Assembly (NCBI GenBank): GCA_041489255.1
Contig: JBGPQV010000032.1
Location: 1 to 17,469 of the forward strand
DNA length: 17,469 nt
Direction of reading: 5' to 3'
Source: Thermoplasmata archaeon
GTDB taxonomy: Archaea > Thermoplasmatota > Thermoplasmata > RBG-16-68-12 > JAFNFQ01
A model generated the notes under the pieces. That model was given only the letters and a program-made list of their open reading frames with translations. It did not search any database and was not told the DNA's origin. Positions within the stretch are counted from its first letter, which is position 1, and the number at the start of each line of letters is the position of its first letter. Below are positions 7,033-17,469 of this stretch, piece after piece. The translations under genes were made by a program, and so were the position numbers.

Positions 7033-7695
7033 TTAACGCCCAATGAGGTGCAGGAGGTCGGTCAACAGTGAGTGTTCGGTCACCTCAGTGTCTGCCAGGA
7101 GATTCGGACCAGCGATGAAATACCTTCGGTCGTGGGCCCTGACGATGTCGAACGCTGCCCCCCGCCAAGGGTAACAGGTCATGAGAGCGAAGTATTGGCC
7201 TGAGCCTCCGAGCTCAATTGCCAACCCCAAGAACGCTCGGCCTATCCCCACACCAAGCTCGTCGTCGTAGCATTTACACTCAACGACGGCCCAGACACCT
7301 TTCTTTGGCAAGGGTTTTCCACTTTGGCGACAAGACTCCGCAACGTCGCCGTCAACGACCCCCACGTCCATCTCGTGAGCGTGGGAGGACGAACCGATCG
7401 CATATGTGTTGGCGTGGAGTTCCAAGGAGGGCTGGCTGGGCGTGCCCTGCGCGAACCGAATGAACGAACACGACTGGTCTGTGATATGTCTCCGCCCCTT
7501 TGGGAACACAAACGTGGCGCCCTCTAACTGTGCTCCACGCGGACGGTATCCGAGCTGTTTCACGACGCTGAAAGTCACTGAGAAGCAGTAGGCCTCATAG
7601 GCCCTGGAAACATCAGTTGGAAGTTGGAACGCGGTGGCAATACCTCGAAGAGCTGAGCGAATCGCGTTCACAAGCTGACCGAGTGCTGGTTGCAT
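7033..7695 (-). CDS. PD-(D/E)xK superfamily nuclease (restriction endonuclease/Mrr-like)
   Basis: N-terminal helix 'RAYEAY', 'GSSSHAHEMDVGVV' (catalytic D) and 'AVVECKCY' (E-x-K), followed by helix 'LGVGIGRAFLGL'. Confidence 0.75.
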   Translation of the reverse strand: MQPALGQLVNAIRSALRGIATAFQLPTDVSRAYEAYCFSVTFSVVKQLGYRPRGAQLEGATFVFPKGRRHITDQSCSFIRFAQGTPSQPSLELHANTYAIGSSSHAHEMDVGVVDGDVAESCRQSGKPLPKKGVWAVVECKCYDDELGVGIGRAFLGLAIELGGSGQYFALMTCYPWRGAAFDIVRAHDRRYFIAGPNLLADTEVTEHSLLTDLLHLIGR

Positions 7696-9243: not shown

Positions 9244-9581
9244 CGGCGCCCTCAGGCGGACACATGAAGATGACGTAGTCAGACATGCGGCCTTCGCGAC
9301 GGAAATACTGGCGCCGAATCGCGGAGCTGTTGACGGTCGGCAGACCGACTTGTTCCAACTAGTTCCCATCTAGATTTTCTTGCGATTAGACAATGAACGC
9401 GACGATGAATGCTTCGCTTGCACCGGCGTTGTCAAATTCTTAGGGATGAAATGCCCGGGAAAGAAAGCTAACGGCACCTGGCTTATGGAGAAGACAAGAC
9501 ACGACAGGTCCGCTCCGCAGCCAGATATCCCTAATTTCCTGACAACCTCGAAGATAGCGCTATCCTTATCACCCCATGATG

Positions 9582-9693: not shown

Positions 9694-12600
9694 ATGGTGC
9701 GAATGCGGGTGCGTGTCCTTGCGGCTGCGATTTCAGTGATTATGATTCTGATGACCTGGCAGGTCGTCGTAGAGCTCTGGAAGCCGGGTCCATCTGAACC
9801 GCCAAAAGAGCTGGGGCCATTGACTGCTCAAGGTCCATCTTCCCATTATTACGTTCCGTCTTCACAGACGCTCGAGAATGGGACCCAGACTGGAGGAGAC
9901 TGCGGTTCGACGTGGTCCGCCCTTAACGAATCCGATGACTCGCGGTGCTCATACATGGAAGCCAATAAAGATCCGGCGAACCAGACAGGGGTCGTGATCA
10001 TCCCAGACGCAACGGATGTGAACGGCTGGTCAGCCGGAAAGACCTGTTCGGCGGATGCGACGCCTTGGGATGAACTCGACGACGGGGCAGACACCAACGA
10101 CGGGGATACGACGTGCCGTGATGGAAATACAAACGGCAATAGAGTGGGCGTAACGCTCTCTAATCCATCGTGGACTAAGGTTGCGGATATCGACGACTTC
10201 ACCGTTGTCAGCTCCTCGGTCGTCAAGAAGACAAACAGTCAGTCCGCCTCGATCTCTGTCGATGTCAAGGTGGACGCCTCGTCTTACAACAGCGGCTCAA
10301 CCCAGACCACGACGACCTCATACGTCAGATACAGTCGTACAGACACGGTAAATCCGATCTCGGGGACGGAATGGACGGCGAGCGACATCAACGGCCTGGC
10401 CATCGCGACCACGTGCGTAGACTGCAACCCGGACAACAGGGCGACGCAGATGCAGTCGAAGATAGACGCCGTCTACAATCCAGACTACGCTCTTGAGATT
10501 CGATTCGGCTGGACGGGGGTGCCGCTTGTGGGAGACAGCTGGACGCTCGTCGTCGAGTGCACACGCCTCGTTCCAGGCGCAGAGGATGTCCTGGTAGATA
10601 TCGGACAGGGTGGCAATCCGCCTACGAGCTGGAAGACAGCATACACGTGCACCTCCGACGGGGACGAGACCCACAGCACTTACAAGCTGAGTGCGGCGGA
10701 GCTCAACAACGGCGCGCCGATCGTCCGCTTCTGGGACGCTTACGCGGATGAGCCTGATGACACGGTTCGAGGGATCATATCGCTGGACGTTCTCAGAATT
10801 GAGCGGGTTGAATACAGAACCGGCCAATCCCCCTGGTTCTATTACGTTGGCGGGTCTGTGAATGCTGACAACGGGAACCTGTTCCTCCCGTTCCGTGACT
10901 TCACGGTGAAGGCACTGGGCTGGCCTCTCGAGATAGTCCGAGCATACAACAGCGGACTCGCCGCCAACGACGGACTCATGGGCTACGGGTGGACATTCAC
11001 CTACGACACGCGGATCGTCGAGGCGACGACGGGGATCGCGAACTGGTACGCTCCGGACGGGGGTGTGCACACCTACCGGCAGTCGGGTGGCACATGGACT
11101 GCCCCGCCCGGAATCGACGCGAAGCTCACGAAGTCCACTACCTTCACCCTGTGGTTCAAAGACGGTTCCAAGTTCAATTTCAATTCGGTCGGCAGACTCT
11201 CGACGATGGTCGACAAGAACGGCAATACAATCACCCTGACATGGTCTCAGTTCGCCCCAATCGAACTCACGTCTGTTGCAGACGATTCGGGCCTGCAGCT
11301 GAGTTTCTCGTACCAGGTCTCGGGGATGACGGCGAGAATCACCATGATCCAATATCCTGTCGGACGGCAGGTCCGATACTGGTACGACTTGAATGGGAAC
11401 ATGTATGCATTCAAGGACGCGATGGGCAGCTCCTCCTATTACACATACGATGGCTCTCATCGCATCCTGACGTGGCGGGACCCGGTCGAGAGCCCCATGC
11501 CCCTGCCGATACCTCAGGTGAGGAAGACGACTTTCCGTTATGACCCGTGGGGCCGCGTTGACCAGATCAAGCTGGCGTCGGTGAACGCGATGACGAACGC
11601 GACGCAATACGAATATGTCTCGTATGGGCTCGACTATGTGGCGGCAACCTTCCAAGGTGCGGACCACGCCATGAACGCAACAAACGCCAGGAACGTCGTC
11701 GCCACGATAGACATGGACACATCCGGCGTCCCGTTACACGTGAAAGGGCCGCAAAGTGGAAGCTGTTACCAACCCAGCGGGACATCTGGGTGTAGCGGGG
11801 GCGGAGGATGCAGATGCAACAAAGGAGGAAACGGCTGCTCTTCTGGCGGCGGTTGCGCCGGGAGCGGCGAGATCACGGAGGAAATGACACTCACATGGGA
11901 TTCGAATCGAGATTTGCTAACAATGAATGACGTGGGGAACCATCAATACGTTTACACTTATGACGCTCGCCGCAACCTGTTGAACACGACAGACCCACTA
12001 GGAAACGTGACGAGGACCTTGTGGTCGAACGTGGACAACGGGACTGCGTTCATCTCCACGTTGAATAGGACCACGAATGCCCGCTTGTTCACGTGGTACA
12101 ACGAGTACGACTGGAAGGGTAACCTGAAGCAAATGAAAGACCCGACGAACAACGTGACGAAGATGGAGTACAATGCCCAAGGCTATATGACGAAATCGAC
12201 GGACTGGCGGGGCAATGACACCACCTTCGAATACGACTCCCATGGCTATCTGGTGAACAGGACGGATGCGACGCTCAACAGGACCCAGTACACCGTGGAT
12301 GGGGTAGGGCGGACGACCTACATCAAGATGCCCGATGGGCACACCTGGCACGCGGAATACGATAACAACGATAGGGTGACTAAGGTCACGGATCCTCTCG
12401 GGAACTACACGGCGTACACATATAATGCCAGGAACAGCGTTCTTACCTTGAGGGATCCCCTGGTCCGTATGACCCTCTACTCATGGAATGTGACCAACCT
12501 CAAGATTGGAGCGGTGACGGACGCCCTCGGTAACACAACCTGCTACAGTTACGATCTTGTCGGGAACCTCGTGAAATTCACTAACCCGAGGGGATACTCC

Positions 12601-15018
12601 ACCGTTCTCGTCTACGACAACTTCAACAGACGAACGGTTCAGAGGGACGCCCGAGGGAACGAGACCGCATACACGTACAACGGCGATGGCCTCGTGACGG
12701 CTGTGAGGAACAGGAGAGGGTTCTACACCAACTATACGTACGATTCGCTGCACAAGCTGACGACCGTCACCGATGCTTTGGGCAACATTACGAGGCTCTA
12801 TTATGACCAGGTTGGCAATCTGGCCGAGGTGAAGAACGCAAGGGGCTTCGAGACAACCTACACGTACGACAGACTGAACCGGGGAACCAAGATGACAGAT
12901 GCGCTCGGCAACTATACGAGCTCCGATTACGATGCGAACGGCAACGTCATCGTCGTTCGCAATCCTGAGAATTCTCAAACGACTACGTACGATATTATAA
13001 ACCGCCCGACAACGGTGGAGAATGCACTCGGGCACATGACGAATTACTCCTACGATTCAGAGGGCAATTTGCTGCTGGTCAAGGATGCGGAGGACCACAG
13101 CACCTCTTATATTTACGACGCACTCAATAGACCCACTGAGCTCACGGATGGCTCTGGCGATTCGACACTCTTCTCATATGACGCGGTGGGGAATCTCCTC
13201 AACGTGACGGATGGCAATGGAAACGTCACCCGCAGGCAGTTCGATGCGCTCAACAGGATGACCCGCGATACGAGTCCGCTGGGCAAGACCACGGTTCTGA
13301 CCTATGACGCCAACGGGAACGATGCCAGCTGGACTGATCCGTTGGGCCAAGTGACAAACTACACATACGACGAGCTGGACAGGCTCACCAAGGTGGCATA
13401 CCCGAACGACCAAGTCCTGACCTCGACCTACGACGCCGAGGGGAACAGGCTCACAGCGACGGGGTCCGGGTTCACCAGGACGAAGGTCTACGACGCGCTG
13501 AACCGCGTCGCCTCCGTGACGATGGACTACGGCTCGTTCTCCAAGCAGGTTCAATACACTTACGATGAAGTCTCGAACAGGAAGACCATGACATACCCGG
13601 AGGATCAGACGGTAACGTACACCTACGATGCCCTTGATCGCCTCACCAAGTTGCAGGATTCCATTACAGGAGCGTGGAACTTCACGTATGACGCGGACTC
13701 CCGCAGAATTGGTCTTGCCTATCCAAGCAGCCTCGAAACTGAGTGCGCGTACAACGCCGCAGACTGGTTGATGGGAGTTTACACCAATACCTCCGGAGGG
13801 ACCGCGGTTCAATCATTCGTTTACACATATGATGAGACTGGGAACCGGAAGACGATGACGGAAAATGGCGGGAATGTTTCGACCTACACCTACGACGACG
13901 CTTACCGCCTCGTCAACGAGTCATACACTGGCGGACTGACGATCAACTACACTTACGACGATGCCGGCAACCGCCTCACCGAGACTAGGAACGGAGTCCT
14001 CACCGACTACGAGTACGACGCGGACAACCGCCTTACTGCGCGCGGCACGGTGACATACGCCTACGACGACAACGGCAACTTGATCAGCATGGCCGACGGC
14101 GGGCAGACCACCAATTACACCTGGGACTACGAGAACCGTCTCACGAAAGTGGCGCTGCCCGGCGGCACGAACGTCAGCTACGAGTACACGACAGACGGGA
14201 AGATGCTGTCCCGCACCCAGTCCGGCGTCAAGACTTGGTACGCCTACGACTTCGTCGAGGTGAACGGGTATGACGACATGATCGCGGAGTACAACGCGAC
14301 AGGCTCGCTCCAAGCGAGATACATCCACGGACCTGGAATCGACGAACCTCTCGCGGTCATCCAGGGAGGGACGACGGAATATTACCTGCGGGACGCGCTG
14401 GGCTCGGTCACCGGCTTGGCATCAGGCCAAACACTCAGCGCTGTCTATCACTACGAGGCGTTCGGGGATTTGCGGGCGGGGTCGGGGACCATCGATGAAT
14501 ATGGCTTCACATCGCGCGTTCTCGACTTTTCATCAGATTTGTATTTCTACCGAGCGAGATGGTACGATTCGCAGGCAGGCCGATTCCTGAGCAAGGACCC
14601 TGCGGGTTTTGTTGACGGCGCCAATCTATTCGCCTATGCTCTCAACAACCCCACGACAAAGAACGATCCTTCAGGAATGCACTGCTGCGAATGGTGGGAA
14701 TGGTTGCTTTACCAGAACTATTGCTGCTATCACGTAGCGGGCGAGTGCGCGAATCGGAATTGGGATTCTTTCCTTGGATGTCTTGCAGCTGCCGGGATTA
14801 TCATAACAGCGAATCTCATTGTTGTGATTTTAGCCGCCCTTTTAACCGGCGGACTTGCTGGTATAGCCGCACTCATCGGCGCCATTGTGTACGGATGCAA
14901 GTGCTTTTATGATTGCTGCAAGGGCCCAGTAGGGAATCCCCCGCCTTGGAATCCCTCCCCTCCTCCTCCACCACCCGGAGGAGGGGGAGGAGGCGGCGGA
15001 CGCCACGTAATATGCTGA
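9694..15018 (+). CDS. rhs: secreted Rhs/YD-repeat protein (polymorphic-toxin architecture) with Cys-rich hydrophobic C-terminal tip
   Basis: N-terminal basic plus hydrophobic signal/anchor; DUF6531-like 'VNADNGNL...RAYNS...GYGW'; dozens of YD repeats; Rhs-associated core 'LYFYRARWYDSQAGRFLSKDPAG...NLFAYALNNPTTKNDPSG' ending at 14676; 113-aa tip. Confidence 0.95.
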   Translation: MVRMRVRVLAAAISVIMILMTWQVVVELWKPGPSEPPKELGPLTAQGPSSHYYVPSSQTLENGTQTGGDCGSTWSALNESDDSRCSYMEANKDPANQTGVVIIPDATDVNGWSAGKTCSADATPWDELDDGADTNDGDTTCRDGNTNGNRVGVTLSNPSWTKVADIDDFTVVSSSVVKKTNSQSASISVDVKVDASSYNSGSTQTTTTSYVRYSRTDTVNPISGTEWTASDINGLAIATTCVDCNPDNRATQMQSKIDAVYNPDYALEIRFGWTGVPLVGDSWTLVVECTRLVPGAEDVLVDIGQGGNPPTSWKTAYTCTSDGDETHSTYKLSAAELNNGAPIVRFWDAYADEPDDTVRGIISLDVLRIERVEYRTGQSPWFYYVGGSVNADNGNLFLPFRDFTVKALGWPLEIVRAYNSGLAANDGLMGYGWTFTYDTRIVEATTGIANWYAPDGGVHTYRQSGGTWTAPPGIDAKLTKSTTFTLWFKDGSKFNFNSVGRLSTMVDKNGNTITLTWSQFAPIELTSVADDSGLQLSFSYQVSGMTARITMIQYPVGRQVRYWYDLNGNMYAFKDAMGSSSYYTYDGSHRILTWRDPVESPMPLPIPQVRKTTFRYDPWGRVDQIKLASVNAMTNATQYEYVSYGLDYVAATFQGADHAMNATNARNVVATIDMDTSGVPLHVKGPQSGSCYQPSGTSGCSGGGGCRCNKGGNGCSSGGGCAGSGEITEEMTLTWDSNRDLLTMNDVGNHQYVYTYDARRNLLNTTDPLGNVTRTLWSNVDNGTAFISTLNRTTNARLFTWYNEYDWKGNLKQMKDPTNNVTKMEYNAQGYMTKSTDWRGNDTTFEYDSHGYLVNRTDATLNRTQYTVDGVGRTTYIKMPDGHTWHAEYDNNDRVTKVTDPLGNYTAYTYNARNSVLTLRDPLVRMTLYSWNVTNLKIGAVTDALGNTTCYSYDLVGNLVKFTNPRGYSTVLVYDNFNRRTVQRDARGNETAYTYNGDGLVTAVRNRRGFYTNYTYDSLHKLTTVTDALGNITRLYYDQVGNLAEVKNARGFETTYTYDRLNRGTKMTDALGNYTSSDYDANGNVIVVRNPENSQTTTYDIINRPTTVENALGHMTNYSYDSEGNLLLVKDAEDHSTSYIYDALNRPTELTDGSGDSTLFSYDAVGNLLNVTDGNGNVTRRQFDALNRMTRDTSPLGKTTVLTYDANGNDASWTDPLGQVTNYTYDELDRLTKVAYPNDQVLTSTYDAEGNRLTATGSGFTRTKVYDALNRVASVTMDYGSFSKQVQYTYDEVSNRKTMTYPEDQTVTYTYDALDRLTKLQDSITGAWNFTYDADSRRIGLAYPSSLETECAYNAADWLMGVYTNTSGGTAVQSFVYTYDETGNRKTMTENGGNVSTYTYDDAYRLVNESYTGGLTINYTYDDAGNRLTETRNGVLTDYEYDADNRLTARGTVTYAYDDNGNLISMADGGQTTNYTWDYENRLTKVALPGGTNVSYEYTTDGKMLSRTQSGVKTWYAYDFVEVNGYDDMIAEYNATGSLQARYIHGPGIDEPLAVIQGGTTEYYLRDALGSVTGLASGQTLSAVYHYEAFGDLRAGSGTIDEYGFTSRVLDFSSDLYFYRARWYDSQAGRFLSKDPAGFVDGANLFAYALNNPTTKNDPSGMHCCEWWEWLLYQNYCCYHVAGECANRNWDSFLGCLAAAGIIITANLIVVILAALLTGGLAGIAALIGAIVYGCKCFYDCCKGPVGNPPPWNPSPPPPPPGGGGGGGGRHVIC

Positions 15019-15467: not shown

Positions 15468-16205
15468 TCACAAACCTTCTATGCAGGCCTCTATCTGGGA
15501 GCGCGAAGCCTCGAACCGCTGGGTCCATTCTCGACAAACCGCCGCCAATTCCTCATCTTGTTGTCGGCGCTTCTGACGCCATTCTACCCAGGCTACAACA
15601 CTCATGATGCATATGAACACAGCATAAATGATGAGATCCGTAGGACCGAAGATGAGGAGCGAGATTGGCACCATTAATATGTTGACTGCGATTGCGAATA
15701 ACGCGAACCATGTGACCCATCTGGTACCTATCCCCTTTCCGCCTGCGAGAATCTGCCATGTTGGCACCTCACTTATTGCCCGCAAAAGCATGTCGAAGGT
15801 TGTCCCGCGATGGGCTTTGGGAACCGACAAATCGGTTTCTTGCGCAAGCGTCGCTCTGAATTGCTCGTACCAAATCTGGAGGTCATGGAGTCGGGGCTTG
15901 TCATGAATGCGAATGTACCACACAGACACCACCCCCAAGATGACACCGCCCGGCAATGAAAGCATGGCCACATACATCAAACCCTCAACTGTATCCAGAT
16001 TGGCCACATGTGCTCTTACGAGGATCAGGAAGGTCATTTCGCACACAATAAAACTCACGAGAACTGCTAAAGAGAGGGATATAAGATAGGCCTTCCGCGC
16101 GGTCATGTATGCTTGAGTCGACAGATAGCTCCCCTGCCTCGCTATGTCGAGAAGGAGAGCGCTGATGCGGTCATCGGCAGTCGCGTCGAATGCTTTCTCT
16201 GTCAT
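15468..16205 (-). CDS. membrane protein (about 4 TM, two hairpins), operonic with the wHTH gene
   Basis: 245-aa ORF with two pairs of hydrophobic helices; it ends 4 nt before the wHTH ATG. Confidence 0.75.
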   Translation of the reverse strand: MTEKAFDATADDRISALLLDIARQGSYLSTQAYMTARKAYLISLSLAVLVSFIVCEMTFLILVRAHVANLDTVEGLMYVAMLSLPGGVILGVVSVWYIRIHDKPRLHDLQIWYEQFRATLAQETDLSVPKAHRGTTFDMLLRAISEVPTWQILAGGKGIGTRWVTWFALFAIAVNILMVPISLLIFGPTDLIIYAVFICIMSVVAWVEWRQKRRQQDEELAAVCREWTQRFEASRSQIEACIEGL

Positions 16206-16314
16206 GCGAATTCCCTATAGAGCATGCGCGTCCAGCAACATAAGCATGACTCCAACTGATTGCATTGCTTTCAATTGAGGAACTAAGGGACAGACTCAAA
16301 CCTTTGCATCCATC

Positions 16315-17151
16315 ATGATAGTCTCTGGCGCTGTGTCCCTGAGCGGTTTTAATCGTGACTTCCCAGTCATCCCTTGTCACGCTGTATTTCCGTTTCAGGT
16401 TCCGAGGCAGTACGATGTCGTCGAAAGGCTCTAGGCGAAGGAAAAGACGATGGTCACGGTTAGCAACCATTCCTATGACTCCTTCCATCTGAGCGTGAAG
16501 ATCAATATGACGACGGGAAGCGGTTCGGTGTCCGTTGGAGAGGATGCCTGGGTGAGGGTTTCGGATTGCGCAAGCATCAAGATGGAAATGGGCTTCATGA
16601 TGATACAGATGAACACGACCTTCGATCCTCCGCAGCAGGGTCTTAATTTCCCGCTCGGCGACGGCAAGACACGGTCCGAATAGAAAGAACTCGATGACAT
16701 TCCCATCTCGGTCCCTGTGACGTTGAACTAATAGAACGTGCCCGCCGGCACCGTCACGCTCTGAGGGCCTGATGCCACATAGTCCATCGTGACTGTCGCA
16801 TTCATGGGGGGCATGCCCATCCCCGATATCGTCATGATGCTCGTCGACGACCAAGTCGGGTATTTGGTGAAGACCGGTTCCGCTTCTACCCCGGGCCTCA
16901 CGGGCTTCAGCATGTCTCCTCTCGAGCTCAAGTCCTACAACTACCAGAAGGCTGGCGGCCTCATCTGGATTGTCCTGATAGTGATCATCGTCGTGGCGGT
17001 CGTCCTCACTGTGGTGGTCGCGATGATTGTCAGTTCGCGACGGAAGAGGCGCATGGCCGCGCAGATGCCGCCACAGGGCCCTGTCTTCGGACAGCCTCCG
17101 CTGCAGCAACCGCCTCCATATCAGCCGCCCATACAACCGCCACGGACGTAA
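16315..17151 (+). pseudogene. disrupted gene for a C-terminally membrane-anchored surface protein, interrupted by an internal inversion and stops
   Basis: ORFs 16450..16683(+) and 16789..17151(+) are in the same frame; the missing middle is on the minus strand. Restored: ...NFPLGDGKTWSSTS...VTVPAGTFY*FNVT...SFYSDRVGYLVK...LELKSYNY, then TM, SRRKRR and a Pro/Gln tail. Confidence 0.8.
16668..16857. other. inverted segment (16671-16854) bounded by GACACGGTC (16668-16676) and GACCAAGTC (16849-16857)
   Basis: Reverse-complementing 16671-16854 (184 bp) gives in-frame fusion at both junctions; the boundaries are a 7/9 imperfect inverted repeat, and each is a GACNNNGTC palindrome. Confidence 0.8.
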
Positions 17152-17346
17152 GGCGCATTGATACTCATGCCGTCAGTGTGCTAGCGTGGGCGAGGTCGTT
17201 CCTTGTCGGTCTGCCGCTTGTCATCGTATACGGACCATGAAGATTGCGGTCGTGTCGAGTCCCAAAGGTGGGGATTCATGTTTTTCAGAGAGCGGTTTTG
17301 TCTAAGACAATCCGCGAATGACTTCACCACGTAGACAGTGCGCCTA

Positions 17347-17469
17347 GTGTAGCGTATCATAATTCGATACGCTTATAATCCGGGGATTCTTTCCGGTCGT
17401 CATGCGAGTGGCACCGACCGTCACTATTCCCGAGACCGACCGCGAAACGCTGCAGAAGTGGAGCCGGGG
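17347..17469 (+). mobile_element. left end of an IS630-family insertion sequence (truncated by the window edge)
   Basis: CTAG at 17344-17347 (TA target) followed by GTGTAGCGTATC..., with a transposase-like ORF starting 55 nt later. Confidence 0.65.
17402..17469 (+). CDS. IS630-family transposase, N-terminal fragment
   Basis: MRVAPTVTIPETDRETLQKWSR(G) resembles the typical IS630 N-terminus (xLSxEERxxLExWxR); CTTATAAT TATA-like motif at about 17372-17379. Confidence 0.7.
   Translation, partial: MRVAPTVTIPETDRETLQKWSR

Follow-up and report, generated by a model that had tools for sequence, protein, structure and literature searches.

The window analysed here is the whole of contig C32 (17,469 bp) in the genome of a Thermoplasmata archaeon (G000), and it is bounded by repeated ends of the IS type. 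An RpoB of the archaeal type scored above the cut-off in this genome. The left end of an IS630 element (17344..17469, + strand), inserted at CTAG and truncated by the end of the contig, lies 190 bp downstream of the gene remnant with which we are mainly concerned. Its 126 bp are identical to positions 1981-2106 of contig C40, its transposase begins with the ATG at 17402, and the first 22 codons of that gene end the window; the full transposase protein from C40 matched NF033545 with 281 bits (cut-off 100). The complete element on C40 (1981-3115) has CTAG at both ends, and right ends were also found on C2 and C28. At the other side of the window, positions 2-141 are the end of a second repeated element, common to the ends of C17 and C18, which is probably another IS. 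Positions 9424-9550 hold a MITE-like element of 127 bp that has inverted repeats at its termini and several copies in the congeneric genome G001; the copies on C1 and C7 are flanked by 9-bp target duplications, while the one in the window is not, which hints at an element-mediated rearrangement. Little of C32 was matched in G001, and we infer that the contig is a variable region in which decay of the kind described below is expected.

Three other genes of the window are of note. The 1774-aa RHS-repeat protein encoded at 9694-15018 (+) carries a DUF6531 domain, a membrane segment at its N-terminus and a tip rich in Cys at its C-terminus, and DNA related to it was found on contig C20 and in genome G011. 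An ORF of 220 aa (7033-7695, -) carries a D...E-C-K-C-Y motif reminiscent of the PD-(D/E)xK restriction-type nucleases; the ORF had no match in Pfam, PADLOC or NCBIfam. The divergent neighbour of the remnant (15468-16205, -) encodes a 245-aa membrane protein. Its distant homologues are ~330-440 aa long, and it is similar to no more than their C-terminal ~240 residues; this gene and the surface-protein gene may have been deprived of their 5' ends together, or the protein may be a natural short form.

The remnant itself (16408..17151, +) was recognized by tblastn and blastp, and by a DUF3108-like Pfam similarity below the cut-off, as what is left of a gene for a membrane-anchored beta-sheet surface protein of ~290-300 aa. 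In intact members of the family, which measure 275-330 aa, a signal peptide and a W-x-x-G-D-Y-W-E-Y motif precede a beta-rich ectodomain, which is followed by a single transmembrane helix and a Pro/Gln tail. In the window, homology to these relatives begins only at about 16408-16414, and the place of the signal peptide and the W-x-x-G-D-Y-W-E-Y motif (~50 codons) is taken by non-homologous DNA (16206..16407) with a GC content of 49%, compared with 57% for the gene. When a profile covering ~58 N-terminal residues was built from 22 of the 25 homologues and used in a six-frame search of the genome, it matched the four other paralogues (27.5-90.8 bits) and had no match on either strand of C32. A displaced copy of the 5' end, or a second inversion that had carried it away, is thereby ruled out on C32, and a faint resemblance to GDYWEY near 16350-16370 on the minus strand did not score. 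The 3' part (16855..17151, +) was shown by alignment and structural model to hold the last strands, the transmembrane helix (at about 16960-17031), a basic stop-transfer sequence and the Pro/Gln tail, and 80 of its 98 residues are identical to those of P0006, the closest homologue in the protein database.

Two in-frame TAG codons were found, so that the statement of the initial annotation that one TAG remains missed both a second stop and the absence of the 5' end. The TAG at 16432-16434 (+) stands where four of the five closest full-length homologues have Glu and the fifth has Asp, and the TAG at 16728-16730, read on the minus strand of the inverted segment described below, stands where all five have Ser. 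Both adjoin further changes (16426-16437 and 16723-16737), with Asp changed to Tyr at one and Val to Ala at the other, and these form small mutation clusters relative to the closest homologues. Read-through as pyrrolysine was ruled out, since the genome has no PylS above the cut-off, none of the 31 tRNAs found in it has a CTA anticodon, and TAG commonly ends genes (300 of 795 long frames); TAG is evidently a true stop in this archaeon. From the first ATG (16450) the present sequence would give a product of 77 aa, and re-inversion by any of the three crossovers tried would give 115 aa, in both cases without signal peptide and anchor. As the 5' end is lost and two TAG stops stand in either orientation, neither orientation is predicted to yield an exported, anchored protein, and the gene appears dead both ways.

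Compared with intact homologues, the gene thus carries several independent lesions, namely the 5' loss, the two TAGs and the inversion. Its conserved columns are little changed: 3 of 38 are altered, as against 3-6 of 40-42 in intact homologues. If nonsense changes make up 3% of substitutions, two neutral ones would by our estimate predict ~7 altered columns, and for this reason the loss looks recent, perhaps selected, rather than the outcome of long neutral decay, or the figures reflect small-number chance. With four other family members kept in the genome, losing this one was probably cheap.

Evidence for the inversion comes from intact relatives. A DNA search of 41 genomes gave matches in six, and the informative ones were a paralogue on contig C5 of the same genome and a gene on contig C64 of the congeneric G001, against both of which the middle of the query aligned on the strand opposite to its flanks. 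When the segment 16671..16854 was re-inverted, the restored frame aligned as one HSP with the C5 paralogue (52% over 219 aa) and with the G001 gene (54% over 215 aa), and DNA alignment with these two homologues showed no gap at either junction and no bases gained or lost. Identity to P0006 was 70% over 227 aa (295 bits) after re-inversion, whereas the present frame gave 57% over 237 aa (220 bits). The re-inverted form matched 24 of the 25 database homologues and the present frame 22, and all 22 matched by both scored higher with the former. Since intact homologues are collinear only with the re-inverted order, the inversion is real and derived, and the restored order proposed in the initial annotation is borne out by the three alignments. 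The C5 paralogue was ruled out as a source from which the segment could have been copied, as the two are only 78% identical and the segment does not have the 4-codon insertion of the C5 gene. DNA of the orthologue P0006 was not found in metagenome contigs, genome contigs or the 79 genomes of the order, where the best other match was 51%; the metagenome contigs gave two weak loci (L013 and L014), neither of which matched P0006 by tblastn. The P0006 cluster has five members, all intact proteins, in a protein database in which flipped alleles would not appear.

The inverted segment, placed by tblastn and blastp to paralogues and P0006 and by AlphaFold2 strands, lies wholly inside the one gene and measures 184 bp if the outer crossover is assumed; it encodes four central beta-strands of the ectodomain (P0006 residues 139-201). 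It is bounded by an imperfect 9-bp inverted repeat, with the left arm GACACGGTC at 16668-16676 (+) and the right arm GACCAAGTC at 16849-16857 (+), the latter reading D-Q-V forward and T-W-S reversed; 7 of the 9 positions match, and the crossover can be placed only within these arms. A direct check of the sequence reproduced the coordinates, 9-mers, 7/9 repeat, 10-bp palindrome, minus-strand reading and TAG at 16728-16730 given in the initial annotation. The palindrome (TCGTCGACGA, 16841-16850) does exist beside the right arm, but as a special feature it did not stand, for DNA alignment showed it to be ordinary S-S-T-S codons that are unchanged in the intact C5 paralogue. Preservation of the frame on flipping, with the inner crossover included, was likewise confirmed, as every symmetric flip from 16668-16857 through 16678-16847 remains in frame. 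Only 1.0% of 20,000 random position pairs reached a 7/9 match, so the homology at the breakpoints is above chance and seems to have guided the inversion event. Short inverted repeats of this kind are plentiful (in the C5 paralogue alone, 501 pairs match at 7 or more of the 9 positions and 28 at 8 or more), yet enriched at these breakpoints.

The arms can be accounted for by the amino acids they encode. K-T-W-S written in common codons gives GACNTGGTC, and D-Q-V corresponds to the reverse complement of GACNTGGTC; because the genetic code makes T-W-S on one strand the reverse complement of D-Q/H-x on the other, the inverted repeat would be accidental and the 9-bp arms a by-product of K-T-W-S and D-Q-V codons. 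The P0006 protein carries exactly K-T-W-S and D-Q-V, and with the commonest codons of the genome for Lys (AAG, 84%), Asp (GAC, 72%) and Val (GTC, 52%) its arms, as derived from the protein, can match at 7-9 of 9 positions. Across the family the arms do not appear to be conserved, those of P0006, the closest homologue, being known through its protein only: in 33 homologous site pairs from 30 loci (L011, L012 and L017-L044, with L015, a repeat of G001, and L016, a repeat of the window, left out) 2-7 of the 9 positions matched, with 7 reached in one pair and 8 in none. A nested piece on the opposite strand was seen at none of the 30 homologous loci.

Within the arms the position of the crossover bears on what the ancestor encoded. 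An outer crossover at GAC requires no later change, but it gives the ancestor an Arg codon (CGT) where only 1 of 25 homologues has Arg. The inner crossover fits the Gln of P0006, but it requires a later T>C at 16672 and puts Arg in the arm column where Trp is invariant (25 of 25 homologues). With a crossover between arm positions 4 and 5 (flip 16672-16853) the Trp is restored and the left arm becomes the same as in the C5 paralogue. The D-Q-V now read in the right arm is not independent evidence, as it is dictated by the reversed Thr-Trp codons.

The orientation of the segment was followed in sediment metagenomes. The stretch was found in seven DNA runs, all from sediment, and no RNA run was among the runs matched. 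In each of the four runs examined, one contig crosses both junctions, in the inverted form only, with 0 differing letters, 0 gaps and no joint, at depths of 14.6, 4.5, 6.0 and 7.6. The assembly may derive from run X1, X3, X4 and X5 are not marked as possible sources, and the studies behind the four runs may be one campaign. At contig level the inverted allele is fixed or nearly fixed in the population sampled, contigs at depths of 4.5-14.6 being such that rare variants are lost and a minor re-inverted fraction could escape. The initial annotation had held that the inverted orientation alone, with fixed stops, would indicate a one-off lesion and not a switch, and this is the pattern that the contigs display.

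Taken together, these results make it very probable that a single accidental inversion, now fixed, took place in what is a young pseudogene. The intact ancestor would have had the signal peptide, 12-strand beta-sheet ectodomain and C-terminal membrane anchor of its homologues, and its K-T-W-S codons and a D-x-V ~60 codons further on would have formed an accidental inverted repeat of 7-9/9. At one arm, during replication or repair, the nascent strand may have changed over to the opposite template and at the other arm returned, inverting the spacer without an indel; such template switching, which is independent of recombinases, and microhomology-mediated repair would be two indistinguishable routes to the same product. 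The same gene also lost its 5' end and gained its two TAG stops, lesions that are visible in the alignments. Because the gene is also broken at three other places, the flip amounts to an ordinary scar left in a dead gene and not to an on/off switch; these further lesions and the single orientation support the template-switch-type microinversion in a decaying gene that had been offered as an alternative to a switch.

Inversion of a spacer between short inverted repeats was reportedly described in E. coli by Schofield, Agbunag and Miller in 1992. The available text of one study attributes such events in yeast coding DNA to template switching (PMC8604942), and a four-point template-switching model is outlined in the accessible part of another (PMC5453318). 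The archaeal locus resembles template-switch inversions in the flip of a spacer between short imperfect repeats, without an indel or a linked recombinase, in coding DNA. It differs in its host, in arms that have not been homogenised (7/9 now) and in a spacer of about 170 bp, compared with the 2-5 bp that the available text gives for yeast (PMC8604942). A literature search returned no paper on microinversions in archaeal pseudogenes. The locus gives a clean case from nature of an archaeal pseudogene that carries a ~180-bp inversion bounded by microhomology.

It is unlikely that the segment instead preserves, as a fossil, a flip made by an enzyme at GAC-N3-GTC sites, be it that of an inverton still live in the lineage of P0006 but locked OFF in this genome, or that of a Tth111I-type enzyme that cut and religated the DNA. 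In the first case, an intragenic ON/OFF inverton formerly driven by a recombinase would have been locked (for instance through a T>C in the left arm at 16672) before it decayed, and this we regard as improbable. The clean flip without an indel in a surface protein, and the arms of 7-9/9 that P0006 could have, are what it would predict, and according to the part of Chanin et al. available (PMC10028968) invertons seen 100% reversed may be locked. The genome also has 4 matches to the tyrosine recombinase family PF00589 and at least 10 to the resolvase domain PF00239; none of either is on C32, so that the absence of a recombinase from the window, as first reported, holds for site-specific recombinases there. 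No match to the IS110 bridge recombinase (PF02371) was found in the genome. Against a locked inverton stand the codon origin of the arms and their poor conservation in the 33 pairs, the lack of flipped alleles at the 30 loci, and the five intact members of the P0006 cluster, as far as a database of proteins can reveal flipped alleles. Furthermore, a self-comparison of the 1853 called genes, of which 924 had non-self matches, gave five cases of neighbouring matches on opposite strands, and only the pseudogene locus was nested, the other four being side-by-side genes or partial copies. With this one nested case and no sister inversion, there is no apparent sign of a genome-wide inversion system in a scan that detects multi-copy families only. 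If the locus did turn out to be an inverton, a surface-protein inverton with unusually short sites would be added to the very few archaeal ones reported.

Separately, the genome contains two similar three-gene clusters of the resolvase-domain (serine recombinase) type, at C25:26748-29659 and C28:14922-17872.

The second kind of enzyme-made flip, in which both sites are cut and the fragment is religated backwards, seems more improbable still. Tth111I and AspI recognize GACN^NNGTC. Both breakpoints have the form GAC-N3-GTC, and the crossover 16672-16853, one of three possible, coincides with the cut position, restores the Trp and gives the left arm identical to that of C5. Nevertheless, a palindrome repeated in inverted form reads as itself, which makes the pair of sites a single coincidence, and GAC-N3-GTC is not avoided in this genome, occurring once per 1340 bp with an observed/expected ratio of 1.61. 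Comparable ratios at spacers of 6 and 9 (1.48 and 1.47) suggest a codon effect of Asp-x-Val periodicity. No such enzyme was identified, and PADLOC gave no match among the 8 window proteins. If the idea were true, it would mean that restriction enzymes can flip small gene segments.

An active phase-variable inverton, the reading under which the flip would switch the gene off and on, can be given hardly any credence. Re-inversion does preserve the frame, and rare alleles are beyond what contigs can show; even so, the re-inverted form retains both TAGs in a genome lacking pyrrolysine decoding and has no signal peptide, which makes either orientation null, the inner crossover would put Arg where 25 of 25 homologues have Trp, the arms are not conserved, and the contigs of all four runs hold a single orientation. 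Intragenic invertons as defined by Chanin et al. with PhaVa rest, in the portions of the two reports available, on reads in both orientations from one sample (PMC10028968; PMC11892184), and an archaeal case is given there in the adenylosuccinate synthase of Salarchaeum (PMC10028968). Our locus is like those in the available text in that a flip inside one gene brings premature stops and leaves two ORFs where there was one, and it differs in that only one orientation is seen in contigs and the forward form is still a null allele (PMC10028968). A flip between short repeats that restores a frame should not be read as an inverton before both orientations have been observed and one of them is functional. 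An assembly error or amplification (MDA) chimera, which had been named as a real alternative on first inspection, deserves just as little weight, because although the locus is 0.5 kb from the contig end and a 52-bp stretch of the C5 paralogue, 90% identical, overlaps the right junction, contigs of X3, X4 and X5 run through the two junctions and the two TAGs without any difference, and the short contig pieces at 16810-16861 are the C5 paralogue, their loose ends at 16810 and 16861 matching its own flanks.

As to the family from which the dead gene derives, members were found in 46 of the 79 genomes of the order. The AlphaFold2 model of P0006 has 12 strands with a mean pLDDT of 83.6, and its best structural match was the Parabacteroides lipoprotein BDI_3050 (PDB 4fvs; VIA Z 11.5, with an rmsd of 4.5 A for 175 aligned residues), followed at Z 9.9-9.0 by LolA-type proteins and unrelated beta-barrels. 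The DUF3108-like family PF21347 matched four of six homologues with 15.8-24.7 bits, below the Pfam gathering cut-off of 27 bits; the inverted piece scored 17.5 bits, and the E-value of 2.4e-5 on P0001 was likewise below the cut-off. That these proteins bind a lipid or other ligand at the surface is only a guess from the modelled fold. The predicted 12-strand beta-sheet of P0006 may resemble the open antiparallel beta-sheet of DUF3108-like (PF21347) and LolA-like proteins, from which the archaeal members differ in having a signal peptide and, at the C-terminus, a membrane anchor as well.
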